A stretch of DNA of 64,000 nt from Candidatus Omnitrophota bacterium (GTDB taxonomy: Bacteria; Omnitrophota; Gorgyraeia; Zapsychrales; Fredricksoniimonadaceae): contig CAJARJ010000019.1 of assembly GCA_903944345.1 (NCBI GenBank), positions 7,480-71,479 of the forward strand, read 5' to 3'. The translations under genes were made by a program, and so were the position numbers. Positions 16,037 through 35,390 of the stretch are shown one piece after another (positions within the stretch are counted from its first letter, which is position 1; every line of letters starts with the position of its first letter). The notes beneath the pieces are model-generated. The model was given only the letters and a program-made list of their open reading frames with translations, ran no database searches and was not told where the DNA came from.

Positions 16037-16160
16037 AAAAAAATTGCTATAAACTATTGATTTTAAATAACTTTTATTCCTTATTGATCTTATTAAGGTT
16101 ACCTACTTATACAGATACTATTTATTTCTATTAATTAAGATTTAAAGAAGGAGAGAAAAA

Positions 16161-17245
16161 ATGCGAATTAAAATACTAAAAGATGATTTATTACAAGGCA
16201 TACAAACGGTTCAAAATATCGTTGCTTCAAAGGCAACTTTACCTATTTTATCGAATATGCTACTAGAAACAAAAAAAGATTCTTTAAAGTTAAATACTAC
16301 TGATTTAGATATCGGAATATCCTGTGAAATACCTGTTAATATTATTGAAGATGGGGCGATTACTATTCCCGCCAAAAGATTTCATGATATTATTCGCGAG
16401 TTGCCAGCAGGAGATTTGACAATTTCTGTCAAAAAGAACAATCAGATTGAAATAGAAGGACTTAATTGTCGAATTAAATTAATGGGACTTCCTAAAGAAG
16501 AGTTTCCACAGTTCCCGGAATTTAAGGATAAGGAGGCTGTAAGAATTAAACAGTCTGATTTGAAAGAAATGTTCAGGTTAACAGCTTTTGCTGTTTCACA
16601 TGAAGAATCACGTTATGTATTAAACGGTATTATGCTGGAAATATCAAATAATACAATACGGATGGTTGCGACAGATGGAAAAAGATTAGCAAAAGCAGAA
16701 AGAAATTTAAATCTTCCGGTTACAAAAGATGTGGCTGTGATTTTACCGGTCAAGGCTGTTCAGGAAGTTAATAGAAATTTGAAGGATGATGGCGATGTTA
16801 TTATGGTCTCAGCGGTGAATCAGGTTCTTTTTGATATCAGCGGGGTGTTGATTGCAACACGCATAATTGAGGGAGATTTTCCTAATTATAGTCAGGTTAT
16901 TCCCAAAACAAACGTTCCAAAAATTACTTTGAATACTAATGATTTTCTTTCGGCTATACGCAGGGCAAATTTGTTAGCTACACCAGATTTTCAGGCGGTT
17001 AAATTTGAGGTATTTAAAGAAAAACTGGTAGTTTCGAAATCTACACCCGATATTGGAGAGTCCAGAGAAGAGTTGGCCATTCAGTATAGCGGCACAGAAA
17101 TGGTTGTGGGTTTTAATCCACAATATATGATAGATGTGCTTAAAAACATAAATGATGAAAAGATTGAACTTGAAATCCTTGGGCCAGACAAGCCTTGCGT
17201 AATTCGTAAAGAAAATTATTTATATTTGGCTCTGCCTATGAGATT

Positions 17246-17249
<4 letters not shown>
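16161..17249 (+). CDS. dnaN: DNA polymerase III beta sliding clamp
   Basis: 362 aa; MRIKILKDDLLQGIQTVQNIV...PILSNMLLE, the typical DnaN N-terminus; RBS AAGGAGAG 8 nt upstream. Confidence 0.95.
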
Positions 17250-19980
<2,731 letters not shown>

Positions 19981-20013
19981 ACAGAGATAAATGCTTAGAA
20001 AGGCATTGGCGGT

Positions 20014-22479
20014 ATGAAGGATTTTACAAAAAAAGAGCGAATTGTTCCGATTCCCATCGAAGAGGAAATGAAAAGTTCCTACATTTCCTATTCTATGAGC
20101 GTTATTGTCGGCCGGGCTTTGCCGGATGTGCGTGACGGCCTCAAGCCGGTGCATCGCCGCATATTGTATGCGATGAAAGAGCTGCATCTTGAACATAACA
20201 AGTCGTACAAAAAGAGCGCGCGTATCGTGGGTGAAGTTTTGGGTAAATATCATCCGCACGGGGATTCTGCTGTTTATGACACCATGGTCAGAATGGTGCA
20301 AAGTTTTTCGCTTCGCTATCCACTGGTTGATGGTCAGGGAAACTTTGGATCCATAGATGGAGATTCTGCGGCGGCTATGCGGTACACTGAAGCCAGGATG
20401 GCTCCTATTGCTGAGCCGCTCTTAGCCGATATCGACAAGAACACGGTTGACTATACCCCCAATTTCGATTCAACATTAGAAGAGCCGTTGATTCTTCCCG
20501 CCGCATTACCCAATCTTCTTGTGAATGGTTCGAGTGGTATCGCGGTCGGCATGGCGACTAATATGGCGCCGCATAACCTTAACGAGATTGTCGACGGAAT
20601 AAGCATTCTTCTGGACAATCCTGAGGTCGAAATTGCGGATCTGATGAAGTGTGTGAAGGGGCCGGATTTCCCTACAGGGGGGATTATCTGTGGTCGCGAG
20701 GGCATAAAAGATGCGTTTATGACCGGACGCGGTAAGGTGACTTTACGCGGCAAGGTTGGGATTGAGAAACAGAAGAACGGCAAAGATTTCATTATTATCA
20801 CCGAAATTCCTTACCAGGTGAACAAGTCGAATCTGGTATCTGCAATTGCGGATCAGGTGCAGAATAAGAGTGTTGATGGTATTACGGATATTCGGGATGA
20901 GTCTGATAAAGACGGAATTCGGGTTGTGATCGAACTGCGACGGGATGTTGAGGCGCAAATTATCCTGAATTATCTGTACAAGCATACGCAACTGGAAGTT
21001 ACTTTTGGTGTCATTAATCTTGCACTGGTCAACAATAGTCCGCGTGTCCTTAATTTGAAGCAGCTTATGTCTTATTATATCGATCACCGTCGTTTGGTGA
21101 TTCGTCGCAGGACACAATATGAGCTGGATAAAGCTTTGCGACGCGCACATATTCTGGAAGGATTGCGGATTGCCCTCGAAAATATTGATGAGATAATACG
21201 TGTTATTCGCAAATCATCCTCCACTCTGGAAGCCAAAACGGCCCTGATGAAAAAATTTGGGCTGACGGAAATCCAGGCGCAGGCTATTCTGGAAATGCAG
21301 CTGCAAAAGTTGACTGGTCTTGAGAGAGACAAGATCGAGCAGGAATATAATGAGCTGCTTAAGGCGATCGATGAGTACCGACAGATACTCGCTGATCCTA
21401 AAAGAGTCGATGCCATCATTCGTAATGATCTGGCAGCGTTAAAGGATCGTTTTGGAGACGAGCGCCGGACGGAGATTGCGGGCAAGGCAGATGAGATTGA
21501 GATAGAAGATTTGATTGTCGACGAGGACATGGCCATCACCGTGACCAATACTGGTTATATCAAGCGTACGCCGGTTGATGCCTATCGCAAGCAGAAGCGC
21601 GGTGGCAAAGGTGTTACGGGTATGACGACCAAGGAAGAGGATTTTGTTGAAAGACTTTTTGTCGCTTCGGCCAAGGATTATCTTTTGATTTTTTCCAATA
21701 AGGGGATTATCCGTTGGTTGAAGGTGTATGAAATTCCGATGGCCTCCCGTCAAGCCAAGGGAAAAGCTATTGTTAATCTTTTGTCTTTTTCCAGTGACGA
21801 GTCGATCAGTGCGATTGTGGCGGTCAAAGAATTCAATGACGAGCAGTCTTTGATCATGGCGACTTTTCGTGGAACGGTGAAGAAAACAAAACTTTCTGCT
21901 TACAGCAATCCCCGTAAGGGAGGAATTATTGGCATTACCCTAGATAAGGGGGATGCCTTGATCGGTGTGGCGCTTGCCGACGGCAAGCAGCATGTTCTTT
22001 TGGCTACAAGAAAAGGGCAATCGCTACGTTTTCTGGAAACGCAAATCCGTGACACCGGACGCTCTGCTATGGGGGTGCGAGGAATCGCTTTGGACAAAGA
22101 TGACGAAGTTGTGGGGATGATCGTGTTTCCCGCAGATGTGGATAAAACAGGGAATACTCTTTTGACTTGTTCGACACTTGGTTTTGCCAAGAGATCCAAA
22201 TTCGAAGATTACCGGACGCAAACGCGCGGCGGCAAGGGGATTATTAATCTCAAGTGTACGCCCAGAAATGGAGTTGTTGCCGGAATCCTTGTGGTGCATG
22301 AAGATGACGAGATTATGACGGTAACTAAACAAGGCTCAATTATTCGTTGTAAGCCGGCAGATGTTCGAATGACGGGACGCAGTGCGGTTGGGGTTAAGCT
22401 TGTTTCTTTGGAGGAAGCGGATGCCGTTGCTTCTATTGCGAACGTGATTGCCCGGGATGAAGTAGAGGTAACAGAGTAG
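20014..22479 (+). CDS. gyrA: DNA gyrase subunit A
   Basis: 821 aa; active-site region [14 protein letters not shown]-like region [19 protein letters not shown]-terminal beta-pinwheel repeats. Confidence 0.96.
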
Positions 22480-22494
22480 GCGTTTCAATTTTAC

Positions 22495-22522
22495 TTGACG
22501 ATTAGAAAGCCTTAAATATAAT
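22495..22522 (+). promoter_or_regulatory. Candidate sigma70 promoter for tRNA-Glu
   Basis: -35 TTGACG (22495-22500), 16-nt spacer, -10 TATAAT (22517-22522), about 30 nt upstream of the tRNA 5' end. Confidence 0.5.
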
Positions 22523-22552
22523 ATAGCGCTACTTTGAATAAAAGTAGTTTTC

Positions 22553-22629
22553 GACCCCATCGTCTAGTCTGGTCAGGACACAAGCTTTTCAAGCTTGGAA
22601 CGCGGGTTCAAATCCCGCTGGGGTCGCCA
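22553..22629 (+). tRNA. tRNA-Glu (anticodon TTC), CCA encoded
   Basis: GACCCCATCGTCTAGTCTGGTCAGGACACAAGCTTTTCAAGCTTGGAACGCGGGTTCAAATCCCGCTGGGGTCGCCA. Acceptor GACCCCA/TGGGGTC; anticodon loop TTTTCAA; T-loop TTCAAAT. Confidence 0.92.
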
Positions 22630-22744
22630 TAATTTTTTCTCATCCGCTGATTCCGAGTGTTCAAAGCTTTCCCTTTCCAAGTCCGGCAAAAAGATTAAAT
22701 ATTAGGATATAAAGTCATAAAAAAGGTTATAGTAGGATTACTAT

Positions 22745-23740
22745 ATGTCTAAGAAAGTTGTCAAAATAGCTGTTAGTGGTGCGGCAGGTCAAATAGGCTA
22801 CTCGCTGTTGTTTCGTCTGGCAGCGGCCCAATTATTCGCAATGGACTGCCGTATTGAGTTAAGCCTGCTGGAACTTGAACCAGCAATGTCTGCCCTTAAA
22901 GGCGTTGTTATGGAGCTGGAGGATTGCGCTTTTCCGCAGTTAGCCAGTATCAAAATTTCATCCGATCCATATGAAGCTTTTGCGGATGCCGACTGGGCAC
23001 TTTTGGTGGGTGCCGCTCCACGGAAAGCCGGAATGGAGAGAGCGGATTTGTTAAAGATTAATGCGTCTATCTTCTTGCAACAGGGCCGGGCATTAGCTGC
23101 AGCCGCACGCAAGGACTGTCGAGTGCTTGTGGTCGGGAATCCTTGTAATACCAATGCTTTTATTGTTAAAGAAAGCGCAGTTGGCTTAGATCCAAAAAAT
23201 ATTTTTGCCATGATGATGCTTGACCAGAACCGGGCGGCAGCACAAATAGCTCGTAGGGCGGCAGTGGACGTTACCGAGATCAGGCGGATTGGAATATGGG
23301 GGAATCATTCAACAACACAGTTTCCAGATTTTTATCATGCCACTATTTCCGGCCGAAATGTTCGCGATGTTATTGCCGATGACAGGTGGCTCCAGACTTT
23401 TTTTATTGAGACTGTTCAGAATCGCGGGGCAGACATAATCAAGTCCAGAGGCATGTCTTCAGCTGCTTCAGCTGCTAATGCCGTTGTCGACACGATGGCT
23501 GCAATCCTCACGCCAACCCTTGAGAATGATTTTTTTTCTGTCGCACAGATATCATGCGGTGAATATGGCGTGCCGGAGGGATTGATTTTCGGATATCCCG
23601 TATGTTCAAACGGTACCCGACTTATGGTTGTTTCGGGGCTGACGCATGAAATTTTTGCGGAACAGAAGATTAAGGCGACCATACAAGAGCTGGTACAGGA
23701 AAGGGATGCGGTCAAGGATGTTCTTAAAAAACAGCACTAG
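22745..23740 (+). CDS. mdh: Malate dehydrogenase (NAD-dependent, cytosolic/LDH-like type 2 family)
   Basis: 331 aa; N-terminal Rossmann VKIAVSGAAGQIGYSLLFRLAA, characteristic of type-2 MDH; catalytic IWGNHS. Confidence 0.88.
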   Translation: MSKKVVKIAVSGAAGQIGYSLLFRLAAAQLFAMDCRIELSLLELEPAMSALKGVVMELEDCAFPQLASIKISSDPYEAFADADWALLVGAAPRKAGMERADLLKINASIFLQQGRALAAAARKDCRVLVVGNPCNTNAFIVKESAVGLDPKNIFAMMMLDQNRAAAQIARRAAVDVTEIRRIGIWGNHSTTQFPDFYHATISGRNVRDVIADDRWLQTFFIETVQNRGADIIKSRGMSSAASAANAVVDTMAAILTPTLENDFFSVAQISCGEYGVPEGLIFGYPVCSNGTRLMVVSGLTHEIFAEQKIKATIQELVQERDAVKDVLKKQH

Positions 23741-23812
23741 TTTTTTGAATGCCTGCTTGTTTTCCCGTAGTTAAAAGATATAATCTGATTATCTTAAATA
23801 AACGGAGGAGTT

Positions 23813-24775
23813 ATGATGGATTTCACCAGGACTAGAGCGGTAATTTTTACCGGCTTGATAGTATTGTTATCAACCGGATGTGATGCGTTTGTTTCCAAGC
23901 CAAAAACAACCAGCAAAAGTAGTTCGCGTTCAGCGGCAACAGATGCCAAGAAGGTTGATGTTGCGGCGATCAAATCAGAATCTGCAGCCAAGATGCTTAC
24001 CGAGCCGTTACCGGCTGGCGTTGTTGCCAAAGTCGGAGAATGGACGCTAACTCTTGAGGAATTTGAGGGGCGACTGAAAGGTGTCAAACAGGTTGTTCCG
24101 GATTTTGATGCGCGCGAGCCAGGCGCAAAAGAGGCCGTTCTCGATGAGCTTTTGCGTCAGCAATTGTTGGTTTACGAAGGTCGCCGTCAGAAGGTTGATC
24201 AGACGCAAGATATACGCAATGCGGTGAAAGATTTCGAGAACACCCTAATTGTTAGGGAGTTTGCCGAAAGCTTGGTGAAGGGCGTTCTGGCGACCGAGCA
24301 GGACGCGCGCGAATATTATGATGCTAACCCAGATGTGTTTATAGTTCCGGTTGAGAAAAGGGTTCGTGAAATTGTTTTGTTGACGGAAGCCGAAGCCAAG
24401 AGCGTTCTGGTTGAGCTTTTGCAGGGGGCGGACTTTGCACAGATAGCCAAAGACCGATCTAAAGGTAAATCGGCAGTTCTGGAAGGCGATTTGGGTTATT
24501 TAACGGAACCCCCTTTTGAGCTTATGAAAAAAGAGATCGATCCGCTGAAGAAGGGGGAGATATCCCGTGTTTTTAGCGGACCAGAAGGGTATTATCTGGT
24601 CAAGGTAGAAGATGTGCGTGGCGGAAACAAGCAACCATATGCTGAGATTGAAACGGATTTGGTTAAATGGCTTACCGGACAGAAACAGCAGCAGGCGGTT
24701 ATGGAGGTCATAGCCAAAACGGCTGAGACCGTCAAGGTTCAGGTGAATGCCGAATTACTTAAGGGCGACAAGTAA
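23813..24775 (+). CDS. Parvulin-type peptidyl-prolyl isomerase lipoprotein (SurA/PrsA-like)
   Basis: 320 aa; lipobox LLSTGC at residues 19-23; SurA-like chaperone N-region; PpiC domain DFAQIAKDRSKGKSAVLEGDLGYLTEPPFELMKK...GPEGYYLVKVEDV. Confidence 0.75.
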   Translation: MMDFTRTRAVIFTGLIVLLSTGCDAFVSKPKTTSKSSSRSAATDAKKVDVAAIKSESAAKMLTEPLPAGVVAKVGEWTLTLEEFEGRLKGVKQVVPDFDAREPGAKEAVLDELLRQQLLVYEGRRQKVDQTQDIRNAVKDFENTLIVREFAESLVKGVLATEQDAREYYDANPDVFIVPVEKRVREIVLLTEAEAKSVLVELLQGADFAQIAKDRSKGKSAVLEGDLGYLTEPPFELMKKEIDPLKKGEISRVFSGPEGYYLVKVEDVRGGNKQPYAEIETDLVKWLTGQKQQQAVMEVIAKTAETVKVQVNAELLKGDK

Positions 24776-24789
24776 CCGGGAGACAAGAT

Positions 24790-25701
24790 ATGGATCTTTT
24801 CGAAAACAAAAAGCAGTTGATCATGATTGCCGCCGCTGTTGTGATCGGCATTGTGGCTTCTGTCATGGTTGCTGGTTTTGTTTCGACGCGCATTAACGAG
24901 GAAACACAAATTTTGGCAGATCGATATCAACAGGCACAGAAGCAGAGAGAGCAGCAATATAACGAGCAAATGGCGGGAATGAATCAGAAAATTGCCGCAA
25001 TGGATCAAAATTACAAAAAAGCCATTGAGGAGTCCAGTCGGGCGGCCGACAAGCGACTGGCAGATGCTGTCGCAGCTGCTAAAGCCGCAGCTGCAGCTGA
25101 ATCAGCCAGAAAGGCGACCGAAGATGCTCAAAAGAATCCGCCCAAAAAGCCAAAACCTTCTCTGGCATTACGTACTCCTGCCGGGAAAAGGGCGATCACA
25201 TTAAAGATAGAGTCTATTGGCGCGGTTGGGGGGTTAATTAATCCGGGAGATTACGTTGACATTATTGCGCACTTGAATCTTCCCGCTGAGCCCGTTGCTG
25301 ACAAACAAAAAAAAGTTGTTACGGCCATGATTTTTCAGAGGGTGCAGATATTGGCTGTGAATACAAATCTTGATCAGATGGGGGAGTACGATGCTCAGCA
25401 GAAAGATGCTGCGCTGAAAATAACCTTTGCGGTTGACCCTCAGGAAGCTGGCCTTTTATCATTTGCAGAAAAGAACGGAAAATTGGAAATGGCTCTACGA
25501 GGCCCCAATGAAAGCAAGAGTGTGATGCTATCTAGTGCGACCTGGTCGACACTTGCCGAGTATGTTCTGGAAAATAGTGGCGCGGATTTGAAGATTCCCG
25601 ATTCAGAGTGGGGGGAAGAGGCACCTGTGGCTGAAGTGGAAACTGTTGACGTTGTTGAAGCTAAACCGTACATTCCGGTCTATCGGGGTGGAAAGGAGTA
25701 G
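24790..25701 (+). CDS. cpaB: Flp pilus assembly protein CpaB/RcpC-like (SAF domain) with an Ala/Lys-rich insert
   Basis: 303 aa; N-terminal TM (IMIAAAVVIGIVASVMVAGFV); SAF-like RAITLKIESIGAVGGLINPGDYVDIIA and QRVQILAVNT motifs; immediately upstream of the secretin. Confidence 0.72.
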   Translation: MDLFENKKQLIMIAAAVVIGIVASVMVAGFVSTRINEETQILADRYQQAQKQREQQYNEQMAGMNQKIAAMDQNYKKAIEESSRAADKRLADAVAAAKAAAAAESARKATEDAQKNPPKKPKPSLALRTPAGKRAITLKIESIGAVGGLINPGDYVDIIAHLNLPAEPVADKQKKVVTAMIFQRVQILAVNTNLDQMGEYDAQQKDAALKITFAVDPQEAGLLSFAEKNGKLEMALRGPNESKSVMLSSATWSTLAEYVLENSGADLKIPDSEWGEEAPVAEVETVDVVEAKPYIPVYRGGKE

Positions 25702-25704
25702 GGA

Positions 25705-27378
25705 ATGTTGGCGTCAATAAATAGAAAATCGGTTGTTTTTGACCGCTCACTCAGGCTTGTTTTGATTCTTTGCCTTTTATCGTTTACTTCTGTCACGGTT
25801 CATGGGGCGGGAAATTTTGATCAGGTTCAGATTCTTAAAGGTGACATGGTCAAGATAGACACCAAAGCGCTAACTAAAGTGTCGATTACGGATCCTGAAA
25901 TTGCAGATATTAGTGGAGCCTCCGCAGAAGGCATCACTGTTATTGGAAAAGAAACAGGCCAGACTGTGTTATTTATCTGGGACGGCGATGTCAAGACAAC
26001 TACGATTGTTCAGGTAGTTCCTGAAAATACTGCATACCTTAAGAGTCGCGCCGAAAGCCTTTTGTTTAGTGCCAACATTCATGAGGTGATAGTTTCAGAA
26101 AGTCCTTATGAAGGTCGGATTGTTTTGACCGGAGAGTTGACGGCCGAAAAAAGAAACATTATGGAGAAGGCGCTTGAGCCATTATTTGGTAAGTATTTGA
26201 ATTTGGTAGGTGATGCGGTCAGTGAGGATATGATACAGATCGATATGCAGGTTACGGATTTATCGACAACTTTGACTAAAGAGCTGGGGGTTGATTGGTT
26301 TTCCGGTACGCAGTCAGGTGATGGAGCCACAGGGAAAGTAACTGGAACTATTGGTGATGGTCTAAATCCCATGGCGGTCGAGGTTCCTCCTGATCAAGCC
26401 GGAACATTTAATGATATGTTCAAGATAGGAAACTTCTATCGTTCAACTGATAGTGCGTTAATAGCCAAAATTAATGCCTTAATTATAGAAGGTCGGGCTC
26501 GCGTTTTGTCCAAGCCGAGGCTTGTTGTCATGAGCGGGAAGCAGGCAACGTTTCTTGTTGGTGGAGAAATCCCGATCAGAACGACAACAACTAATGCCAG
26601 TGGTGGGTCAACGCAGGAAAATGTCGAATACAAAGAGTATGGGGTGAGCTTGATGATGACCCCAACGATTCGTAACGACAAAGTCGACTTGTTGATGAAT
26701 GTTGAAATTAGTGATATTGATGCGGCCAATTCGAGCGGAGATGATGTAGCTTTTACGACTCGCACCGCCCAAACGCAGCTTTTTTTGGATGATCGACAGA
26801 CTATCGTTCTGGCCGGCCTGATACGCAAGCAGGATGGGGTTACCGTCCGAAAAGTTCCTTTGTTGGGAAGTATTCCAGTTCTGGGGATGCTTTTTCGTAG
26901 CAAAAAGACTCCTGCTAATGTCGGGGACAGTGAACTAGTTATCTCCCTGACACCGACGATTATTGCATCAGCCAATAAGAATAAAGGGGCGCGCGCCTTT
27001 CAGGCAAAAAAAGGTGGTTCTGCGAATTTTGAGCGGGATCTGTCTTCTTCATACGTTTCGGTGTCTCAAGCGTTGGCCCCGTATGCCAGACAGGTTCAGG
27101 AAAAGATATCTGCATTTATTGTTTTTCCTTATGAGGCGCGTAGAAATGGCTGGGAGGGTGTCGTAAAATTGGCTCTCATTATCAAACGCGACGGCTCCTT
27201 GAGGGATGCTTTTATTCAGGAATCTTCGGGATATGAAATTTTTGATTTGGATGCTCTTAATACAGCGCGGGGGCTTTCCCCATATTTTCCAATCCCGGAT
27301 GATATTCGCAGTGACGAAGTTTCGGTAACAATACCAATAGCCTATAGATTTGATTCTGTTAATCAAAAAGTTCAATAA
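25705..27378 (+). CDS. cpaC: Tad-type secretin (CpaC/RcpA) with a C-terminal TonB-C-like domain
   Basis: 557 aa; signal peptide; secretin C-domain (LVVMSGKQATFLVGGEIPIRTTTTNASGG...VPLLGSIPVLGMLFRSKKT...SELVISLTPTII); then an extra ~100 aa FIVFPYEARRNGWEGVVKLALIIKRDGSLRDAFIQESSGYEIFDLDALNTARGLSPYFPIP matching the TonB C-terminal fold consensus. Confidence 0.88.
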   Translation: MLASINRKSVVFDRSLRLVLILCLLSFTSVTVHGAGNFDQVQILKGDMVKIDTKALTKVSITDPEIADISGASAEGITVIGKETGQTVLFIWDGDVKTTTIVQVVPENTAYLKSRAESLLFSANIHEVIVSESPYEGRIVLTGELTAEKRNIMEKALEPLFGKYLNLVGDAVSEDMIQIDMQVTDLSTTLTKELGVDWFSGTQSGDGATGKVTGTIGDGLNPMAVEVPPDQAGTFNDMFKIGNFYRSTDSALIAKINALIIEGRARVLSKPRLVVMSGKQATFLVGGEIPIRTTTTNASGGSTQENVEYKEYGVSLMMTPTIRNDKVDLLMNVEISDIDAANSSGDDVAFTTRTAQTQLFLDDRQTIVLAGLIRKQDGVTVRKVPLLGSIPVLGMLFRSKKTPANVGDSELVISLTPTIIASANKNKGARAFQAKKGGSANFERDLSSSYVSVSQALAPYARQVQEKISAFIVFPYEARRNGWEGVVKLALIIKRDGSLRDAFIQESSGYEIFDLDALNTARGLSPYFPIPDDIRSDEVSVTIPIAYRFDSVNQKVQ

Positions 27379-27396
27379 ATAATTGTTTCAGAAATT

Positions 27397-29571
27397 ATGG
27401 CAGCTAAAACGATAACAGTATTTAGTAATAAAGGCGGCGTCGGGAAGACATTTCTCTGCGTTAATAGTGCCTGTTCGCTGGCTTTGTCTGGTAAAAAAGT
27501 TCTTCTGATTGATCTGGATTTCCAGGCAGGACAGGATATGGCGCGCATGCTGAATCTTGTTCCGCGCAGCTCTATTGTTGAATCTTTTTCTCAGTTGGAG
27601 AATCAGGAAGATCCTGCGGTCATCAAGAAATTCGTCATGACTCACGCCATTGGCGTAGATTTTATTTCTGCAGTTTTAAGTTATCGGGAAATGGGGCAGA
27701 TTACTCCAGATAATATACGACCGTTTCTGAGAAAGGCTCAGCAGCTTTACGATTTCATCATTATTGATGTTGGAAAATCATTTACCGAAGTCCTGCTTTC
27801 AGTGTTGGACATGTCCAATCTTATTTTGCTTGCCGTTACTCCTGATATTTTAGCGGTATACCAGATCAAATGGGGCCTAGAGTTGTTGCAAAGCCAGCAT
27901 TTTCCGATGAAAATGATTAAAGCCGTTTTAAATCGTTCGGAAAGTCAAGGCGGAGTTGTGTGGCAGGAAGTTAAGGCGGCGTTAGGTTGCGATATTCTTG
28001 CCAGAATCCCATCAGACGGAAAAGTTGTCGGAAGTGCTCTTAATCGTGGAATTCCATGTGTGGTCGACAGTCCGCGGGCGCGTGTTTCTATGGCATTTTC
28101 GGATCTGGCAGAAATGCTGTGCAACGAAAACAATTATGTGCAGACCACGGAAGTCCTAAGGGTTCGCATAGTCGATGATAAAAAGCAGGATAATTTCTGG
28201 GAAAAGTTTGGTATTACGGAAAAAGCTTCCGGTTCACCAATAAAATATTCAAGCCAAAAAGATGAAGACGAAGGGGTTCGGCTTAAAAAAAGGATTCATG
28301 CAAAACTTGTTGATCGCATGAACCTCAAATCGATAACACCGGAAGCATTGGCAGACCCCGAGCAGGCGGCTAATATTAAGAAACAGGCTGAACGAATTAT
28401 TGTGGATCTCATCACTGAGGAGGCTGGAGCGATTGTTTCTTCTCATCAGGAAAGATCCAAGCTTGTTACCGAAATAGTTAATGAGGCGCTTGGGCTTGGT
28501 CCGTTGGAGGATTTGCTGGCAGATAATGCTATTACGGATATCATGGTTAATAACAAGGATGAGATCTATATTGAGAAATCCGGAAAAATTTTCCTGACCG
28601 GGCGAAAATTTATTTCAGATCAGCAGGTTCGCTCGACAATCGATCGCATTATTGCACCCTTAGGAAGGCGTATTGACGAATCTGTGCCAATGGTGGATGC
28701 TCGTTTGCCGGATGGATCGCGTGTCAATGCTATCATTCCTCCGCTTTCTTTGCGGGGCCCGATGATCACAATTCGTAAGTTTGCCCAGGATCGGTATACG
28801 GTAGAAGATCTTTTACAGCGTTTTCATAGCCTTTCGCGTCCGATGGCGGATTTTATTCAGGCCGCTGTTGTTAGCCGCAAGAATATGCTTGTGTCCGGCG
28901 GGACGGGTTCAGGAAAAACGACCCTCCTTAATATTATTTCAAATAATATTCCGGATGGTGAAAGAATTATTACACTGGAAGATGCGGCCGAGCTCAAGCT
29001 GATCAAGCCGCACTGGGCGCGCCTTGAGTCGAGGCCCCCGAACGTTGAGGGTAAAGGAGCGATTACGATAAGGGATCTTTTTATCAATACCCTGCGTATG
29101 CGGCCAGATCGAATTATTATTGGTGAGTGCCGTGGCCCGGAAGTTCTGGACATGCTACAGGCCATGAATACTGGCCACGATGGATCGCTAACAACCATCC
29201 ATGCGAATTCCACCAGAGATGCCGTAACCCGGCTCAATTCCCTCATTCTTTTAAGTGGAGTAGAGCTACCGTTACAAGCGGTTTATGACATGATTGCGTC
29301 GGCGTTGGATATTATTGTTCAAGTTGCCCGCTTATCGGATGGATCCCGTAAAATTATAGGGATTTCCGAATTAACCGGACGCATTGTGAACGGACTGCCT
29401 GAACTTAAAGATATTTTCGAATTTCGTCATACGGGAATAGATAAAGATGGCCGGGTGATGGGGGATTTTGTGCCAACAGGATATGTACCCGAGTGCTACG
29501 ATGATTTTGTTAAACGCGGGGTTGCTCTCTCTAAAGAAATATTTTCTATAGACCACGTTGTTTCCGCCTGA
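27397..29571 (+). CDS. tadA: Fused TadZ/CpaE-like (MinD/ParA ATPase domain) and TadA/CpaF secretion ATPase
   Basis: 724 aa. N-terminal ~250 aa has the deviant Walker A VFSNKGGVGKTFLCVNSACSLALSGKKVLLIDLD (MinD/ParA/CpaE). A K/E-rich linker follows. C-terminal ~450 aa is a CpaF/VirB11-family ATPase (Walker A LVSGGTGSGKTTLLN, IGECRGPE, His-box TIHANS). Confidence 0.85.
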   Translation: MAAKTITVFSNKGGVGKTFLCVNSACSLALSGKKVLLIDLDFQAGQDMARMLNLVPRSSIVESFSQLENQEDPAVIKKFVMTHAIGVDFISAVLSYREMGQITPDNIRPFLRKAQQLYDFIIIDVGKSFTEVLLSVLDMSNLILLAVTPDILAVYQIKWGLELLQSQHFPMKMIKAVLNRSESQGGVVWQEVKAALGCDILARIPSDGKVVGSALNRGIPCVVDSPRARVSMAFSDLAEMLCNENNYVQTTEVLRVRIVDDKKQDNFWEKFGITEKASGSPIKYSSQKDEDEGVRLKKRIHAKLVDRMNLKSITPEALADPEQAANIKKQAERIIVDLITEEAGAIVSSHQERSKLVTEIVNEALGLGPLEDLLADNAITDIMVNNKDEIYIEKSGKIFLTGRKFISDQQVRSTIDRIIAPLGRRIDESVPMVDARLPDGSRVNAIIPPLSLRGPMITIRKFAQDRYTVEDLLQRFHSLSRPMADFIQAAVVSRKNMLVSGGTGSGKTTLLNIISNNIPDGERIITLEDAAELKLIKPHWARLESRPPNVEGKGAITIRDLFINTLRMRPDRIIIGECRGPEVLDMLQAMNTGHDGSLTTIHANSTRDAVTRLNSLILLSGVELPLQAVYDMIASALDIIVQVARLSDGSRKIIGISELTGRIVNGLPELKDIFEFRHTGIDKDGRVMGDFVPTGYVPECYDDFVKRGVALSKEIFSIDHVVSA

Positions 29572-29574
29572 ATA

Positions 29575-29916
29575 ATGACTGCATATAATATTTCTCGCCA
29601 GACTTTAATTGCAAAACAAGTGCGGTTCGCAGATAGCCCATGGGCGCGCATGAAGGGCTTATTGGGACGCGACTCCTTGAATTCTGATGAGGGATTACTT
29701 ATAACCTGTTGCAATTCAATTCACATGTTTTTTATGCGGTTTTCCATTGATGCTATTTTCTTAGACCGTAATAATAGTGTTGTTGGACTTGTTTGTGCAA
29801 TTCCGCCGTTTTCTTTAAGTCCTGTTTTCTGGAATGCTTCCAAGGTGCTGGAATTGTCAAGTGGCACCATAAAGTTATCAGGTACAGAACTTAACGACAA
29901 GATTGAAATTTCCTGA
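29575..29916 (+). CDS. DUF192 family protein
   Basis: 113 aa; conserved DUF192 core IHMFFMRFSIDAIFLD. Confidence 0.7.
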   Translation: MTAYNISRQTLIAKQVRFADSPWARMKGLLGRDSLNSDEGLLITCCNSIHMFFMRFSIDAIFLDRNNSVVGLVCAIPPFSLSPVFWNASKVLELSSGTIKLSGTELNDKIEIS

Positions 29917-30027: not shown

Positions 30028-31833
30028 ATGGGAGTAACTTACAAATTAAAATCAGAAGTGGTTGATTTTATAGTAGAGAGCAAGCGGAGTGTCCCCTCGC
30101 TAAGTTGCCGGAAGCTGGTTGATCTTGTTCGGCAGCGTTTCTCGATGGATGTTTCGAAATCTTCGATTAATGCAGTTCTTAAAGAGTCTGACTTGAGCAG
30201 CCCAGTTGGACGCCATCCCAAGGGGGTTCCGCTTAAGAATTTTTTTATTCCCAAAGAGAAAAAAGAAAGCTTATTGCAGCAGGTTCAGCCATTTCTTGTT
30301 CCGGAAACTGTTGAGGTTGAGCCGTTGATGGAATTAAGGGAGGATTTTATCCAGCAGTTACCCCCGGAATTACCGCAAGTTGCGCAAAGCGACCAGCCTT
30401 TGAGGCTGGCGCCGGATATCATGAAGCTTGGCTTAGTAGAAGATGTTGCGCCAGAAGACTTTATATTACCGGAAAAGCCTTCAAATTTGAGCGACCCGGA
30501 GCCGGAACAAATTTGGAACATTTCAGATAATTTGCTATTTGAAAAAGGCGGAGCAATTTTTTTTGCTGCCATGTGGTGGCAACGGGCAAGATCTCCGGTG
30601 ATTGGTCAGGCTGTATGGCGCAGTGGTATTTTTGATGGCGGGCGTTTTCTTGAGACTGACTTTATACAATGGCTGGAAGGTCTCTTTTTGTTTCAAGCGA
30701 TTTTCGAAAAAAAGCAAGAGGACTTCTCGCGCGAAGAAATGCGAACGCTTACGGCGCTTTTTGCACACAAACAAACCGATCTTCCTGTGCCCTTAATAAG
30801 GAAGGAAGCATCAGCCGAGGAAAACAGGCGGTTGGCTTGGGACATTGAATCGGCATTGGCAGAAGCTTTTAGCATGGTTAGTTGTTATGAGCTGATCACC
30901 AGATCGGGTCGCAAAGTGCTGATGAATGCTTTTTTAGCCGGTTTTTTGCAGAATTTGCAGGAGGCAGGAAATTCTAGTCTTCCATTATTTTTTGCAATTG
31001 AGCGGGTTGCAGACCGTTTGGTGAATAATATTGAGCCATTGACGCTGCTGTATGGCGCTGGTCAAGATCCTTTTTCGCCATTGTTTGCTGAATACTGGGA
31101 TTTATTGACCGGAGAAACGCAAGATCCGATAGATAGAGTACTGGTTCATATGGTGGATGGCCGGGTTTTCCCGATGTTTGAACGTTTGGCGGCGATCAGT
31201 CGTTCGGTTGTTTTAATTGGGCCGGATCGGGAACAGGTTCTATCGGGCATTGATTTCGGGATTATTGCTGATGGCACAGCGTTTCACTGTGCTTTTACAG
31301 AAAGGACAGCTTCTTATTGCAAAGGGCTTGCAACTATTGCTGGAAAGAAAATTTATGCTTTTTGGGTGAGAGGGCTAGATCAGTCAGAACAGAAAATAAT
31401 ATTGACCAATATTTCTGCCAGTGCTTGTACTGATAATGAGATTGTGGCCCTTTTGTTCAGGACTTATGCACAGCAGCCGGTAACGGATATTTCGCAAAAG
31501 CTTCATCCATTGGAAAATCGGCCATTTTTAGTGGAGAAGCAAGGGAATTTGACCACAATTTTTTATACTCTTTATGAGTATCTGCATCGGGAGCTTGTAG
31601 CCAGTGTATTTCCCGTTCTTAGTCAGCTGGCACTTGATGAATTCAGAAATAATGTTTACACCTTACCGGCGCATATTATTAATCAGCCGGGGGCCTTGCT
31701 GGTTCGACTGCAAGCTGAACCCGGACATCCTTTTTTTGATGCCTTGGTTGAGGCGGCCAGATGGATTAATGCCCAGGACATTCGCGATCAACAAGGGCGC
31801 AGGCTGTATCTTTCCGTAGCTTCTTCTAAATAA
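30028..31833 (+). CDS. Hypothetical 601-aa protein with an HTH-like N-terminus
   Basis: Long ORF with protein-like composition; N-terminal ~50 aa (VVDFIVESKRSVPSLSCRKLVDLVRQRFSMDVSKSSINAVLKE) resembles a DNA-binding HTH; remainder unrecognised. Preceded by the palindrome TGTCCACTCTGGACA (29984-29998). Confidence 0.55.
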   Translation: MGVTYKLKSEVVDFIVESKRSVPSLSCRKLVDLVRQRFSMDVSKSSINAVLKESDLSSPVGRHPKGVPLKNFFIPKEKKESLLQQVQPFLVPETVEVEPLMELREDFIQQLPPELPQVAQSDQPLRLAPDIMKLGLVEDVAPEDFILPEKPSNLSDPEPEQIWNISDNLLFEKGGAIFFAAMWWQRARSPVIGQAVWRSGIFDGGRFLETDFIQWLEGLFLFQAIFEKKQEDFSREEMRTLTALFAHKQTDLPVPLIRKEASAEENRRLAWDIESALAEAFSMVSCYELITRSGRKVLMNAFLAGFLQNLQEAGNSSLPLFFAIERVADRLVNNIEPLTLLYGAGQDPFSPLFAEYWDLLTGETQDPIDRVLVHMVDGRVFPMFERLAAISRSVVLIGPDREQVLSGIDFGIIADGTAFHCAFTERTASYCKGLATIAGKKIYAFWVRGLDQSEQKIILTNISASACTDNEIVALLFRTYAQQPVTDISQKLHPLENRPFLVEKQGNLTTIFYTLYEYLHRELVASVFPVLSQLALDEFRNNVYTLPAHIINQPGALLVRLQAEPGHPFFDALVEAARWINAQDIRDQQGRRLYLSVASSK

Positions 31834-32111: not shown

Positions 32112-32264
32112 ATGAGATGGGTAACAAACCGCAATGCTCAAAATCTTATTGAATATACCCTTGTCGTTGCCGTTGTTTCGGCTGCAGTTGTGGCCATGAG
32201 CACCTACGTGTTTCGCGCTGTTCAGGCGGCACAGAAAGAAATTATAAGGGAAGCCCAGGAATAG
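32112..32264 (+). CDS. flp: Flp-family pilin (50 aa)
   Basis: MRWVTNRNAQNLIEYTLVVAVVSAAVVAMSTYVFRAVQAAQKEIIREAQE: short basic leader, then EY at the Flp processing position and a hydrophobic helix. Below the ORF-track length cutoff. Confidence 0.7.
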   Translation: MRWVTNRNAQNLIEYTLVVAVVSAAVVAMSTYVFRAVQAAQKEIIREAQE

Positions 32265-32296
32265 TTTGTTCTCATCCGGATTTTTAAGGAGGATGT

Positions 32297-32503
32297 ATGA
32301 AGTTAAGGAATAAAAGAGGTCAAGGAACACTCGAGTATGTGATCTTGGTCACAGCAGTAATCGTTGTAGTTATTTATTTTCTTATGGGAACAGGTCAGGG
32401 GTCATTCCAGAACACAATGAATGGTGCATTAAACGAGGCCACTGAAGGAATGTCCACGATGTCCGGTCGTTTTGATGCGGCGTTTGCTCCTCCGGCCCCT
32501 TGA
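32297..32503 (+). CDS. flp: Flp-family pilin
   Basis: MKLRNKRGQGTLEYVILVTAVIVVVIYFLMG...; RBS AAGGAGG upstream. Confidence 0.85.
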   Translation: MKLRNKRGQGTLEYVILVTAVIVVVIYFLMGTGQGSFQNTMNGALNEATEGMSTMSGRFDAAFAPPAP

Positions 32504-32554
32504 GGTTGTGAAGAGTTGACAGAAAGAACAGAATGGCTCAACTGGAGGTAAATC

Positions 32555-32947
32555 ATGTTAAAGGTGTTAAGAAATAAAAAGGCTCAGAATACGGCGGAAT
32601 ACGCCATTCTGATCGCTTTGGTTGTTGGCGCTGTGGTCGCCATGCAGTCTTACGTTCAGCGCGGACTGCAGGCTAGAACACGAGGAACTTCATTGTATAT
32701 GAGAGACGAGATCTCAAATGCGATGAAAGCGGCCGATGCCAGTATGGCCGCCAGTATCGGTAATACCGGGCAGTACAATCCGTATTATCTGGATCAGCAG
32801 TATGAAACGACTCGCGATAGTGAAGAGACTGCAACTGCGGCTCCTTCCAATATCGTGTTGACGGGAACGTCAAATAAGTCTCGTGCTGCCGCCGGATATG
32901 ATGCGACTCTATATAATGGGGATGTAGGCGCAACGGGTCAGGATTAA
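32555..32947 (+). CDS. flp: Flp-family pilin with extended C-terminal domain
   Basis: MLKVLRNKKAQNTAEYAILIALVVGAVVAMQSYVQRGL...; paralog of the gene at 33522. Confidence 0.85.
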   Translation: MLKVLRNKKAQNTAEYAILIALVVGAVVAMQSYVQRGLQARTRGTSLYMRDEISNAMKAADASMAASIGNTGQYNPYYLDQQYETTRDSEETATAAPSNIVLTGTSNKSRAAAGYDATLYNGDVGATGQD

Positions 32948-32976
32948 AAAGCAGGTATTAAACAGGAGAGAAAATA

Positions 32977-33303
32977 ATGAGTATAAGAACAAAAAACAAT
33001 AAGGGACAAACGACCCTGGAGTATATCATCCTGATCGTTATTATCATTGCCGCCCTGTTGACTATACAAGGGTATCTCAAACGCGGCATTCAGGGGCGTC
33101 TGCGCAGTTCAGCGGACGATATTGGTGAGCAGTATGAATCGACAGCCACTAATCATACAAGAACAACGCGAGTTGCCTCTGTTACCAATGAGCGAACGAC
33201 ACAGGCCGGGGAATTCACCGGGTTTATTGGCCAGGAAAACAAGACAGTTGACGAATCTTATAACACGGCTAATGCAGAAATTGTGTACATGCCGGCGCCC
33301 TAA
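32977..33303 (+). CDS. flp: Flp-family pilin with extended C-terminal domain
   Basis: MSIRTKNNKGQTTLEYIILIVIIIAALLTIQGYLKRGIQGRLRSSADDIGEQYE...; paralog of the genes at 33916 and 35058. Confidence 0.85.
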   Translation: MSIRTKNNKGQTTLEYIILIVIIIAALLTIQGYLKRGIQGRLRSSADDIGEQYESTATNHTRTTRVASVTNERTTQAGEFTGFIGQENKTVDESYNTANAEIVYMPAP

Positions 33304-33318
33304 TCAGGAGAGAAACGC

Positions 33319-33501
33319 ATGAAAACAAACAAAGGTCAAAGTACTCTTGAATATGTACTGTTAGTGACAGCAGTTCTGGTGGTCATTATAGGTTGGGTGG
33401 CAGGGCCGGCATCTCCTTTCAAGCAGGCGGTCAACAATACCTTGTATGACGCATCAAATCAAATTGAGTCCATGTCCCAGCGCATTATGGCGGGGAAATA
33501 G
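33319..33501 (+). CDS. flp: Flp-family pilin
   Basis: MKTNKGQSTLEYVLLVTAVLVVIIGWVAGP...; paralog of the gene at 32297. Confidence 0.85.
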   Translation: MKTNKGQSTLEYVLLVTAVLVVIIGWVAGPASPFKQAVNNTLYDASNQIESMSQRIMAGK

Positions 33502-33521
33502 TTGTATAACGAGGAGGATCT

Positions 33522-33887
33522 ATGTTAAAAAGAACTCGCGATCGCAAAGGCCAGAATACGGCGGAATACGCGATCCTGATTGCGCTGGTTGTTGGAGCGG
33601 TTATTGCGATGCAGACTTACGTGCAGCGCGCCTTGAACGGACGGGTTTTTGATACGACCAAATATATGGCCGATAAAACCGCAGAAGTTACAGGAAACGG
33701 GTATCAGTATGAGCCGTATTATACAAATTCGGATTATCAGGTGGATAAAAACACTGGAGAAATCCGTAATCAGTATAATGCCGAGATTGGGATGTATTCG
33801 ACAGCTGAAACATTAAGAGCTGGTAATGAGGTGTCGGATTTTAACCGAGATGGCCTTACGGATTACGGTGACGTAGTTGTTCCGTAA
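33522..33887 (+). CDS. flp: Flp-family pilin with extended C-terminal domain
   Basis: MLKRTRDRKGQNTAEYAILIALVVGAVIAMQTYVQRAL...; paralog of the gene at 32555. Confidence 0.85.
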   Translation: MLKRTRDRKGQNTAEYAILIALVVGAVIAMQTYVQRALNGRVFDTTKYMADKTAEVTGNGYQYEPYYTNSDYQVDKNTGEIRNQYNAEIGMYSTAETLRAGNEVSDFNRDGLTDYGDVVVP

Positions 33888-33915
33888 TTTAATGGAAATT
33901 ATCAGGAGGCATTGC

Positions 33916-34245
33916 ATGAGAATCAATCTAAAAGGAAAAAACGGGCAAACAACCCTTGAGTACGCGATTTTGGTTATGATTATTATTGGCGCTTTGTTGA
34001 CGATTCAGGCCTACATCAAGCGCGGTATTCAGGGGCGGGTCAAAAGTTCGGCGGATGATATCGGCGAGCAATACGATCCGGGTAACACAAATTATGTTAA
34101 GGTAACTAATTCGATATCCAATACCCGCCAGACGTTTAATTCCGGTATTTCACGTTCGGAGTTAACGGCGGCGGATACGGTGGATGTTTCGACCTTCCAG
34201 GAGATAAGTAATCTGGAGTCGGGTGGTTATTGGGGAACACCGTAA
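33916..34245 (+). CDS. flp: Flp-family pilin with extended C-terminal domain
   Basis: From the internal ATG with RBS AGGAGG 6 nt upstream: MRINLKGKNGQTTLEYAILVMIIIGALLTIQAYIKRGIQGRVKSSADDIGEQYD... The track start at 33877 is probably too long. Confidence 0.82.
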   Translation: MRINLKGKNGQTTLEYAILVMIIIGALLTIQAYIKRGIQGRVKSSADDIGEQYDPGNTNYVKVTNSISNTRQTFNSGISRSELTAADTVDVSTFQEISNLESGGYWGTP

Positions 34246-34275
34246 TACGGTTTGGCTTTAGAGCCTTCAGGCTTT

Positions 34276-34318
34276 AAACATCAATGCCGGTTCCGTGACG
34301 GAACCGGCATTGATGTTT
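34276..34318 (+). repeat. Perfect 20-bp inverted repeat with 3-nt loop (hairpin or attenuator) inside the pilin array
   Basis: AAACATCAATGCCGGTTCCG-tga-CGGAACCGGCATTGATGTTT. A smaller hairpin AGCC-ttca-GGCT lies at 34262-34273. Located 30 nt after the stop of the 33916 pilin gene. Confidence 0.8.
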
Positions 34319-34330
34319 AGAAAGAAAAAT

Positions 34331-34681
34331 ATGATTAAGATGTTTCACGGACAACGCGGTCAGAGTGTGGCAACAGAATATGTTGTCATTTTTTTTCTGG
34401 CGATTGCCGCGGTGGCTGCAATGGCCATGTATGTCCGGCGCGCGTTTCAGGGGCGGGTTTATGATGCGAGAATGTATACAATGCAGAAAGCTGCCCAGGC
34501 TTTGGGAGAGTCGGTTCCTTTTGAGTATGAGCCATATTATGCCCAGACGGATAGCAATCTGGCCAAAAGAGCGGATGAAATGACGAGCATTAGTGGTGCT
34601 GAGGTTGTTCTGCGGACGTCTTTCGAAGCTACCACCACGAATAGTCATAGCGTGCAAAGGCAACCGGACAGAGGAATTTAG
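34331..34681 (+). CDS. Flp-like pilin, divergent (start uncertain)
   Basis: MIKMFHGQRGQSVATEYVVIFFLAIAAVAAMAMYVRRAFQGRVYDA...; G-x4-EY motif plus hydrophobic helix. Upstream in-frame ATGs at 34295 and 34313 lie inside the hairpin. Confidence 0.7.
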   Translation: MIKMFHGQRGQSVATEYVVIFFLAIAAVAAMAMYVRRAFQGRVYDARMYTMQKAAQALGESVPFEYEPYYAQTDSNLAKRADEMTSISGAEVVLRTSFEATTTNSHSVQRQPDRGI

Positions 34682-34707
34682 TCGAAATTGCTGTCGGGGG
34701 AAGCGAG

Positions 34708-35061
34708 ATGTTAAAAAAGAAACGTGCCCAGTCACTGGCTGAATACTCGATGTTAACCAGTATTATTGTGGCGGCTATTGTGGTTGTTTATCCGCTGGTC
34801 AAGCGCGGGCACCAGAGTTTGATTAAAGTGGTGGCTGATCAGGTTGGAAGCCAGAGGGATGCTGAGCAGGACTTTTCGCGAGGCTCTTCTTATCTGGCCT
34901 GTTCGGAAACTCGATATAACAGCCGCATTGGTGATGTAGTTCAGGAGGATGGGTACATAGACGGATCGGGAACTGCGCATTTTGCTTATATCCGAACTTA
35001 TGACCAGTCAACCAACAGTTCGAGTATTGAGATTACAAACATGGAGCATGATACGCAATGA
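34708..35061 (+). CDS. Flp-like pilin, divergent
   Basis: MLKKKRAQSLAEYSMLTSIIVAAIVVVYPLVKRGHQ... Confidence 0.72.
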   Translation: MLKKKRAQSLAEYSMLTSIIVAAIVVVYPLVKRGHQSLIKVVADQVGSQRDAEQDFSRGSSYLACSETRYNSRIGDVVQEDGYIDGSGTAHFAYIRTYDQSTNSSSIEITNMEHDTQ

Positions 35062-35390
35062 TCAGGCGCACAAATCAAGACGGACAGACAATTCTTGAGT
35101 ATTCGATCATCATGATTATTGTGATAGCTACTCTTATCACTATGCAGGGCTATATCAAGCGCGGCTTTCAGGGACGCTGGAAATCGGCAGTGGACGATCT
35201 TGGGGAGCAGTATGACCCCCGCGCGGTTTGCAGTACGATTGTTTATTCACAGTCCTCTAATTCAGTTGCCAGTGTTCGCGTGATGGATCATACATCCCAG
35301 AGTGGAATATCGGGCAAGTATACTATACGCAACGATCAGGTGCAGTCTTCAGAGACTAAAACCGGGACAACGGAAGTTCGCCGTCCCTAG
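35058..35390 (+). CDS. flp: Flp-family pilin with extended C-terminal domain
   Basis: MIRRTNQDGQTILEYSIIMIIVIATLITMQGYIKRGFQGRWKSAVDDLGEQYDP...; third member of the KGQTTLEY..KRGIQGR subfamily; ATGA overlap with the preceding gene. Confidence 0.85.
   Translation: MIRRTNQDGQTILEYSIIMIIVIATLITMQGYIKRGFQGRWKSAVDDLGEQYDPRAVCSTIVYSQSSNSVASVRVMDHTSQSGISGKYTIRNDQVQSSETKTGTTEVRRP

Follow-up and report, generated by a model that had tools for sequence, protein, structure and literature searches.

A probable TadZ-TadA fusion motor in an origin-proximal Tad pilus locus of Candidatus Omnitrophota

Introduction

How the ATPase TadZ/CpaE is arranged around the motor ATPase TadA/CpaF of the type IVc (Tad/Flp) pilus has been modelled in situ for Caulobacter crescentus, where the CpaF hexamer was fitted with a surrounding ring of six CpaE dimers (12 copies; PMC13170226). 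Structures of Caulobacter CpaF are available (PDB 8RJF, 8RKD and 9E24), and its domains have been defined as NTD0, NTD1, NTD2 and CTD (Hohl et al., 2024, PMC11300603). In July 2026, an “atypical TadZA fusion ATPase” was described in tad locus 1 of Bdellovibrio bacteriovorus, with the prediction of the fusion credited to an earlier reference (Tesseur et al., bioRxiv 10.64898/2026.07.08.737194). According to the same study, this TadZA lacks the receiver-like domain (ARD), is required for predation, is dynamically localised and binds the polarity hub RomR via its TadZ and linker region. Here, we analyse a tadZA gene of the same kind in a stretch of 64,000 nucleotides from a Candidatus Omnitrophota bacterium (contig CAJARJ010000019.1 of assembly GCA_903944345.1, positions 7,480 to 71,479), which is called the window below and is numbered from its first letter.

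Tad loci have been reported in Omnitrophota, where their TadB and TadC proteins group with those of Bdellovibrionales, and the Tad locus of Velamenicoccus archaeovorus LiM has been placed at genome coordinates 12382-29832 (Seymour et al., 2023). The word “fused” does not occur in that survey or in the giant-gene preprint, and the passages on Tad, pilus, CpaF and secretin in a 2026 Omnitrophota genome preprint do not mention a fused ATPase. A first-pass annotation of the window, made from its letters alone, had assumed that TadZ/CpaE and TadA/CpaF are separate proteins in the described Tad systems. This assumption has to be given up, since the Bdellovibrio fusion has been published and the fusion is frequent in metagenomes. 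The window protein adds an example from Omnitrophota to the TadZA class known from Bdellovibrio. Its gene probably encodes the motor of a type IVc pilus locus, in which TadZ/CpaE and TadA/CpaF have been fused end to end and would act by the mechanism proposed below. What the present case adds is that the class is widespread and consistently ARD-less, that a motif resembling a TadZ tail is conserved in the Omnitrophota linker, and that the TadZ half is obscured by annotation.

Two ATPases in one reading frame

The tadZA gene is a single open reading frame of 724 amino acids, which starts with ATG and contains no internal stop (Table 1). Logan ERR4221774 and ENA ERZ27313537, which are independent assemblies, both agree letter for letter with the window in all 6175 nucleotides compared, and the exact protein is present on at least 11 contigs. 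In a search of 5.8 billion proteins, 117 of the best 120 matches are full-length homologues (690-745 amino acids, 63-100% identity), all of which keep one reading frame through the linker and the same two-domain Pfam content. More than 115 clusters at 90% identity share the architecture, and those that are named belong to Candidatus Omnitrophota or Omnitrophica. Consequently, the uninterrupted frame claimed by the first-pass annotation stands, and the survey of related genomes that it proposed finds the same fusion conserved.

An assembly artefact, in which a missed stop codon or a frameshift joined adjacent tadZ and tadA genes, deserves consideration, since unfused tadZ and tadA are directly adjacent in most phyla, often only 0-20 nucleotides apart, and one sequencing error could imitate a fusion. 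Against it stand the two identical assemblies, the contigs with the exact protein and the in-frame homologues; moreover, the ARD of unfused TadZ is missing from the fused forms, a loss that a sequencing error could not create. The chance of an artefact is thus negligible, and the fusion is confirmed as real. A scan of tadZA for an internal in-frame start with a Shine-Dalgarno-like motif, from which a separate TadA might be made, found none; this is uninformative, as no such motif precedes the annotated start either.

The domain content agrees with the first-pass annotation, which had recognised a MinD/ParA-type N-terminal domain whose Walker A motif is deviant and a CpaF/TadA-type C-terminal domain: Pfam matches both families that it named, with AAA_31/CbiA/ParA at residues 4-240 and T2SSE at residues 365-646 (201.5 bits), and the NCBIfam matches and the motif positions lead to the same assignment. 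For the C-terminal part, the NCBIfam match is the TadA-family ATPase model TIGR03819, which represents an actinobacterial subfamily of TadA ATPases (residues 326-656, 318.6 bits, under the cut-off of 373). The same part matches CpaF (8RJF/9E24) with 373 bits, while the next family, archaeal GspE/FlaI, reaches 125 bits, and Foldseek aligns it to 8RJF with a TMt of 0.86 and 44% identity. It is a complete CpaF/TadA motor with all catalytic boxes, and of the secretion ATPases CpaF is the one nearest to it. KGGVGKT and GGTGSGKTT, the Walker A motifs of the two domains, are separated by 489 residues and not by 470 as first stated. Because the MinD-fold domain begins at residue 4, there is no room for a receiver-like N-terminal domain, whose absence had been noted correctly. 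Both domains reside in one polypeptide, from which a covalent 1:1 stoichiometry and co-localisation follow logically.

An AlphaFold2 model of the monomer, built on an alignment of 91 sequences (mean pLDDT 76, pTM 0.45), shows a folded alpha/beta domain at residues 1-250, with block-mean pLDDT values mostly of 75-95. It is followed by a disordered segment at residues 255-290, the only one with pLDDT below 50, then by helices at residues 292-308, 315-342 and 350-364 and a confident TadA core. By alignment to 9E24 and the published CpaF domain definitions, the helices of residues 292-364 are the equivalent of CpaF NTD1, and the linker sits where CpaF has its disordered and dispensable NTD0. The K/E-rich linker drawn earlier at about 28140-28450 is therefore right only in part: a flexible charged linker does exist, but the true tether covers only 28159-28266 (about 36 residues), and the rest belongs to the K/E-rich helical NTD1.

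Identity of the N-terminal domain

Among proteins of known structure, the best sequence match of the N-terminal domain is 3EA0 with 64 bits, compared with 52 bits for an archaeal MinD. The fold comparison by Foldseek gives the same order, with a TM-score of 0.89-0.90 to 3EA0 at a root-mean-square deviation of 2.2-2.4 Å (2.2 Å over 240 residues), and TM-scores of 0.70-0.83 to FlhG, FleN and MinD. In 47 loci of the GTDB genomes, the homologue of the domain is a separate reading frame that ends just before tadA, with up to 37% identity and 157 bits. These loci are spread over Firmicutes, Actinomycetota, Chloroflexota, Acidobacteriota, Proteobacteria, Nitrospirota and others, and most of the unfused homologues carry 130-200 extra N-terminal residues, that is, they are canonical ARD-bearing TadZ proteins. 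Since the closest unfused homologues sit directly upstream of tadA and mostly bear an ARD, the N-terminal domain is, judged by its sequence relatives, most likely a TadZ-type ATPase that has lost the ARD, and not a recruited cell-division MinD. Its Walker A motif KGGVGKT fits the TadZ form K/RGGxGxS/T, and it occupies the TadZ position immediately upstream of the tadA part in the tad locus, albeit as a fusion.

Alternatively, tadA could have captured a MinD, FlhG or other ParA-like ATPase independently, so that the domain would be no TadZ orthologue. The NCBIfam scores lean that way at first sight, because the MinD-type models, which span residues 4-252, score higher (minD_arch 88.1 bits at residues 5-249, minD_bact 68.2 bits) than CpaE_hom_Actino (34.6 bits); in addition, both Walker A lysines are kept, as in MinD, and the ARD is absent. 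However, all of these scores lie far under the family cut-offs (201.75 for minD_arch and 212.9 for minD_bact). The neighbours are tad genes, with no minC or minE nearby, and the best solved match by both sequence and fold, 3EA0, is neither MinD nor FlhG. Furthermore, the strongest unfused homologues are tad-linked and lie upstream of tadA, and many of them also carry KGGxGK[ST]. We therefore regard a capture of this kind as very improbable and retain the assignment to TadZ. The concern that the domain might score better as a P-loop protein outside the MinD type proved unfounded, as it is an ATPase of the MinD/ParA class.

Within the 91 Omnitrophota homologues, the invariant residues include K12, G13-G16, D39 (LLIDLD of switch I) and D124 (FIIIDVG of Walker B), and K17 and T18 are at least 90% conserved. 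The residues for nucleotide binding and for the dimer signature are intact. Because of this conservation, the comparison argues for a working nucleotide switch. It could be objected that the domain is a degenerate, catalytically dead scaffold, which only adds bulk or a binding surface to TadA, since the intrinsic ATPase activity of canonical TadZ is low (PMC6668835; PMC13170226) and some fused relatives have a degenerate Walker A motif, such as PKEGVGKT in Elusimicrobiales or KGGVGAS. In the Omnitrophota clade, by contrast, the positions listed above are kept, and a mean top-residue frequency of 0.74 shows clear purifying selection on the domain, which makes a dead scaffold unlikely; a working switch is the reading that we follow below.

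A conserved motif in the linker

The linker is the most variable part of tadZA, with the highest column entropy, and contains one conserved motif, FWxKFG, at residues 267-272. In the Omnitrophota homologues, W268 of this motif is invariant, and F267, K270, F271 and G272 are at least 90% conserved. Within the linker region, the helical hydrophobic moment is highest (0.50, residues 262-272) where this motif lies. Short basic-aromatic motifs are found at the C-termini of unfused TadZ proteins, for example KKGLFKLWARGK, KGWLDRLWKRG, GGFFARFRR and KRKNFGLFG, and several other fused proteins carry similar motifs within their linkers, such as KKKKGFSLFGRKK and KKDIFGIFKRKRK. For Caulobacter, the in-situ study reports that CpaE associates with the inner membrane by an amphipathic helix conserved at its C-terminus (PMC13170226). 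From these similarities we infer that FWxKFG may be a retained TadZ tail, which has become internal by the fusion.

Distribution and origin of the fusion

Single-frame fusions were established by frame checking in Omnitrophota (L001-L003), in Bdellovibrionota (L004, L005, L013-L015 and L018) and in one unclassified metagenome-assembled genome (L006). Fusions in Elusimicrobiales (L027, L028 and L080) and WOR-3 (L061) were found with an N-domain profile and confirmed by Pfam, and P0146, the one of ten fused representatives that had a taxon name, is named Spirochaetota by NCBI. Matches of full length in a tblastn search of GTDB had also suggested fusions in Firmicutes, Actinomycetota, Acidobacteriota and other groups, which a check of frames and stops resolved into adjacent, separate tadZ and tadA genes.

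In an exhaustive search of 1.84 billion representatives at 50% identity, 73 of the best 150 matches are fused according to phmmer. When the N-domain profile was run on the same 150 representatives together with ten locus ORFs, the domain was present in 88 of the 160 sequences. In nearly all fused representatives the ATPase domain begins within the first 27 residues; as a rule, therefore, the fused forms are ARD-less.

Most of the remaining top matches are TadA proteins with other N-terminal extensions. Many close TadA relatives carry such extensions, among them loci L055, L039, L046 and L058 and proteins P0177 and P0180. An FHA domain stands at the N-terminus of all three that were checked by Pfam, namely P0177, P0180 and L055, the last of which is from the myxobacterium Archangium. 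Regulatory domains fused to the N-terminus of TadA are thus of at least two kinds. In the fused proteins of Elusimicrobiales mentioned above, the Walker A motif of the N-terminal domain reads SGPQRGMGKT or SGPKEGVGKT, with the signature lysine of KGG lost, and their TadZ half may be non-dimerising or inactive. In addition, some representatives of 830-1600 amino acids, namely P0121, P0122, P0124-P0126 and P0128, have two to four tandem CpaF-like cores per predicted protein, which may be real tandem fusions or gene-calling read-through.

The origin of the fusion was explored with neighbour-joining trees (100 bootstraps) of the C-domain, the N-domain and their concatenate. In these trees, a single branch has 77-81 of the 81 fused sequences on one side, together with no more than two of the 45 unfused sequences, although the bootstrap of this branch is at most 21. 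A single origin of the fusion, followed by transfer between phyla, is suggested by this topology; recurrent fusion of genes that are always adjacent is possible as well. Under the latter scenario, the Omnitrophota fusion would have arisen independently of Bdellovibrio TadZA, as a convergence eased by the conserved adjacency of tadZ and tadA. The Omnitrophota-type and Bdellovibrionota-type fused proteins indeed form separate supported clades (bootstraps of 88-98 and 81, respectively), and the deep nodes are unsupported. Their linkers are unrelated in sequence, and the N-terminal domain of the window protein reaches 157 bits with some unfused TadZ of Firmicutes and only 80-103 bits with the fused N-terminal domains of Bdellovibrio. 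Nevertheless, the one-sided distribution in the trees, the absence of the ARD from all fused forms, the rcpC-secretin-tadZA order common to both groups and the grouping of Omnitrophota TadB/TadC with those of Bdellovibrionales (Seymour et al., 2023) speak for common descent, so that we hold an independent origin to be a serious but less likely possibility than a single one. In the C-domain and concatenated trees, the unfused tadZ and tadA of Bacillaceae bacterium Marseille-Q3522 (L078), whose frames are about 130 nucleotides apart, group with the fused proteins; this pair may be a secondarily split or frameshifted fusion.

The Tad locus and its neighbourhood

The window covers a chromosomal origin region with thrS, yicC, parB, parA, yidC, dnaA, dnaN, gyrB, gyrA and mdh, followed by a complete Tad locus. 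The genes from thrS to gyrA are located within 4893-22479, and the Tad locus is thus origin-proximal. Its order is PPIase, cpaB/rcpC, secretin, tadZA, DUF192, a 601-aa protein, about ten pilins, a 418-aa protein of unknown function, a TadE-like protein, a 942-aa protein of unknown function, tadB and tadC. The features are listed in Table 1. The order PPIase-cpaB-secretin-tadZA also occurs in two of the other Omnitrophota loci (L001 and L002), and a DUF192 gene follows tadZA in L001 too, the sole other Omnitrophota locus that extends past tadZA and shows it. Within the 64-kb window no separate tadZ was found; apart from tadZA, the chromosomal parA beside parB is its sole ParA-like gene.

Table 1. 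Features of tadZA and of the surrounding Tad locus in the window.
Feature	Coordinates	Strand	Evidence
cpaB/rcpC, first Tad gene	24790..25701	+	RcpC 82.5 bits; TIGR03177 85.8 bits, over cut-off
Secretin (CpaC/RcpA type) with C-terminal TonB_C; ends 18 nucleotides before tadZA	25705..27378	+	Secretin 146 bits; TonB_C 63.7 bits
tadZA: TadZ-like ATPase domain, linker and TadA/CpaF motor	27397..29571	+	ORF; Pfam; NCBIfam
Putative TadZ-type ParA/MinD-fold ATPase domain, residues 1-250, without N-terminal receiver-like domain	27397..28146	+	Pfam; PDB sequence match; Foldseek; AlphaFold2
Deviant Walker A KGGVGKT, residues 12-18	27430..27450	+	Motif position and alignment
Disordered interdomain linker, residues 255-290 (36 residues), K/D/E/S-rich	28159..28266	+	AlphaFold2 pLDDT <50; entropy; composition
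FWEKFG motif within the linker, residues 267-272, candidate TadZ C-terminal amphipathic helix	28195..28212	+	Conservation; hydrophobic moment
TadA NTD1-like three-helix region, residues 292-364	28270..28488	+	AlphaFold2 helices; alignment to 9E24
TadA/CpaF NTD2 and catalytic CTD, residues 365-724	28489..29568	+	T2SSE; CpaF match; Foldseek
Motor Walker A GGTGSGKTT, residues 501-509	28897-28923	+	
Motor Walker B RIIIGECRG	29110-29136	+	
Motor His box	29170-29208	+	
DUF192 gene, begins 3 nucleotides past the tadZA stop	29575..29916	+	Pfam
601-aa protein, no Pfam or NCBIfam match	30028-31833	+	
About 10 tandem Flp / class-III-signal pilin paralogues	32112..35390	+	
tadB	40220-41065	+	T2SSF 60.5 bits
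tadC	41067-41957	+	T2SSF 57.2 bits

Some of the neighbouring genes have features of their own. The TonB_C domain of the secretin lies at residues 473-548, which is an unusual fusion, and the match reaches into this region in L002 and L003 and does not in L001. The pilin paralogues, of 50-130 amino acids, share a conserved N-terminal segment of the G/xxxxEY type and have divergent C-termini. About 475 nucleotides after tadC begins a stop-free frame of at least 7189 codons (42432-64000, + strand), which passes the end of the window. Its only Pfam match is a Peptidase_C39-like domain at residues 205-286, and it fits the “giant ORFs” reported beside pilus and secretion genes in Omnitrophota.

Proposed mechanism and implications

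We propose that the C-terminal TadA halves would assemble beneath the TadB/TadC platform into the usual hexamer and would power the insertion and extraction of pilins. The six tethered N-terminal domains would form ATP-dependent sandwich dimers around this hexamer and contact the inner membrane via FWxKFG. In this way they would take over, in cis, the recruitment and ring formation that are the task of separate CpaE dimers in Caulobacter. With co-assembly guaranteed by the tether, the receiver-like domain, which links free TadZ dimers to one another or to a polar landmark, would no longer be needed, or its role would pass to another protein. Any cues for localisation might come from a partner protein, as from RomR in Bdellovibrio, and the TadZ:TadA ratio would be fixed at 6:6.

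Several points weigh against this proposal. The dimerisation of the N-terminal domains, the membrane binding of FWxKFG and the geometry of the hexamer are inferred, and the structural model is a monomer with a pTM of 0.45. The segment around FWxKFG has a slightly acidic net charge, whereas the tails of MinD and of most TadZ proteins are cationic; because it is not cationic, a role in binding a protein would be equally possible. Since Omnitrophota and Bdellovibrio do not share a conserved linker, the RomR-binding role of the Bdellovibrio TadZ and linker region is not transferable to the window protein. In Caulobacter, 12 CpaE to 6 CpaF have been modelled, as opposed to the fixed 6:6 of a fusion. 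Moreover, the 64-kb window leaves room for a standalone tadZ elsewhere in the genome.

If TadZ and TadA are joined in this way, the fusion speaks for a coupling of the two that is direct, both physically and functionally; in unfused proteins the case for it is based on tomogram fitting and AlphaFold predictions. It would also mean that TadZ can do without its receiver domain when a tether holds the ATPase domain to the motor; this narrows the role of the receiver domain to contacts between dimers or with a landmark, rather than activation of the motor. “Atypical” was the word for the TadZA of Bdellovibrio, but Omnitrophota commonly have the same design and at least four further phyla contain it, which makes it a recurrent architecture and no one-off.

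The Omnitrophota are uncultured, ultra-small bacteria that are presumed to be predators or parasites. As tadZA belongs to a Tad locus that is origin-proximal and has a giant ORF directly downstream, its product would be part of their presumed host-attack apparatus. Annotation pipelines label the fused protein “MinD”, “CpaF” or “TadA”, which obscures the TadZ half; consequently, tools that seek a separate tadZ may score these loci as TadZ-less.

A wider interpretation, which we offer only tentatively and think rather less likely than its opposite, is that TadZA represents one ancient ARD-less lineage of Tad motors in Omnitrophota, Bdellovibrionota, Elusimicrobiota, WOR-3 and Spirochaetota, in which the tether and a retained membrane-binding tail replaced the receiver-mediated assembly of the ring and polar targeting. 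If this were true, the lineage would be a distinct Tad subtype tied to predatory or epibiotic, often ultra-small bacteria, and would imply a 6:6 TadZ:TadA architecture in place of the 12:6 ring modelled in Caulobacter.

Comparison with known systems

Among stand-alone ATPases, TadZ of Eubacterium rectale (3FKQ) and Aggregatibacter actinomycetemcomitans resemble the N-terminal part of the window protein as ATPases of the ParA/MinD superfamily encoded beside tadA, with the Walker A consensus already given, although 3FKQ was not retrieved when PDB was searched with the N-terminal domain at E ≤ 0.001. The ParA-family ATPase 3EA0 of Chlorobium tepidum, which we take to be a tad-locus TadZ homologue, is likewise a bare ATPase domain of about 245 residues with no receiver domain. 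In contrast to the window protein, it stands alone, and its Walker A motif KGGDGGS lacks the second lysine.

With CpaF of Caulobacter crescentus, the C-terminal part shares the NTD1-NTD2-CTD layout and all catalytic motifs, in addition to the 44% identity to 8RJF found by Foldseek. Similarly, CpaE has the same ATPase fold as the N-terminal part, and in the window protein this fold is followed by a candidate counterpart of the amphipathic helix of CpaE. The differences are that CpaE and CpaF are two proteins where the window has one, that the window protein has no receiver domain, and that the TadZ tail and linker stand in place of the disordered NTD0 of CpaF.

The FHA-TadA fusions, which are Kil-type motors of Myxococcota and relatives, also join an N-terminal regulatory domain to a TadA/CpaF motor by a long linker, and they are interleaved with the TadZ-fused forms among the best matches and in the C-domain tree. 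Their N-terminal module, however, is an FHA domain and no ParA/MinD ATPase.

The closest described counterpart is TadZA of Bdellovibrio. The linker of the window protein, with its FWxKFG, is unlike that of Bdellovibrionota, where an LQxLKxLxRPK-like motif is found, and the identity of the N-terminal domains is only about 25-30%. In the window, DUF192, the 601-aa protein and the pilin array precede tadB, and tadB and tadC stand together, whereas the tadZA locus of Bdellovibrio sp. HCB288 has the rcpC-secretin-tadZA order and then tadB but no tadC, as described for strain HD100. In spite of these differences, the fused homologue of HCB288 aligns with the window protein in one collinear high-scoring segment pair, with 39% identity over 702 amino acids, and TadZA of HD100 shares with it an ARD-less ParA/MinD-like TadZ, a flexible linker, a C-terminal TadA and the gene order rcpC-secretin-tadZA.

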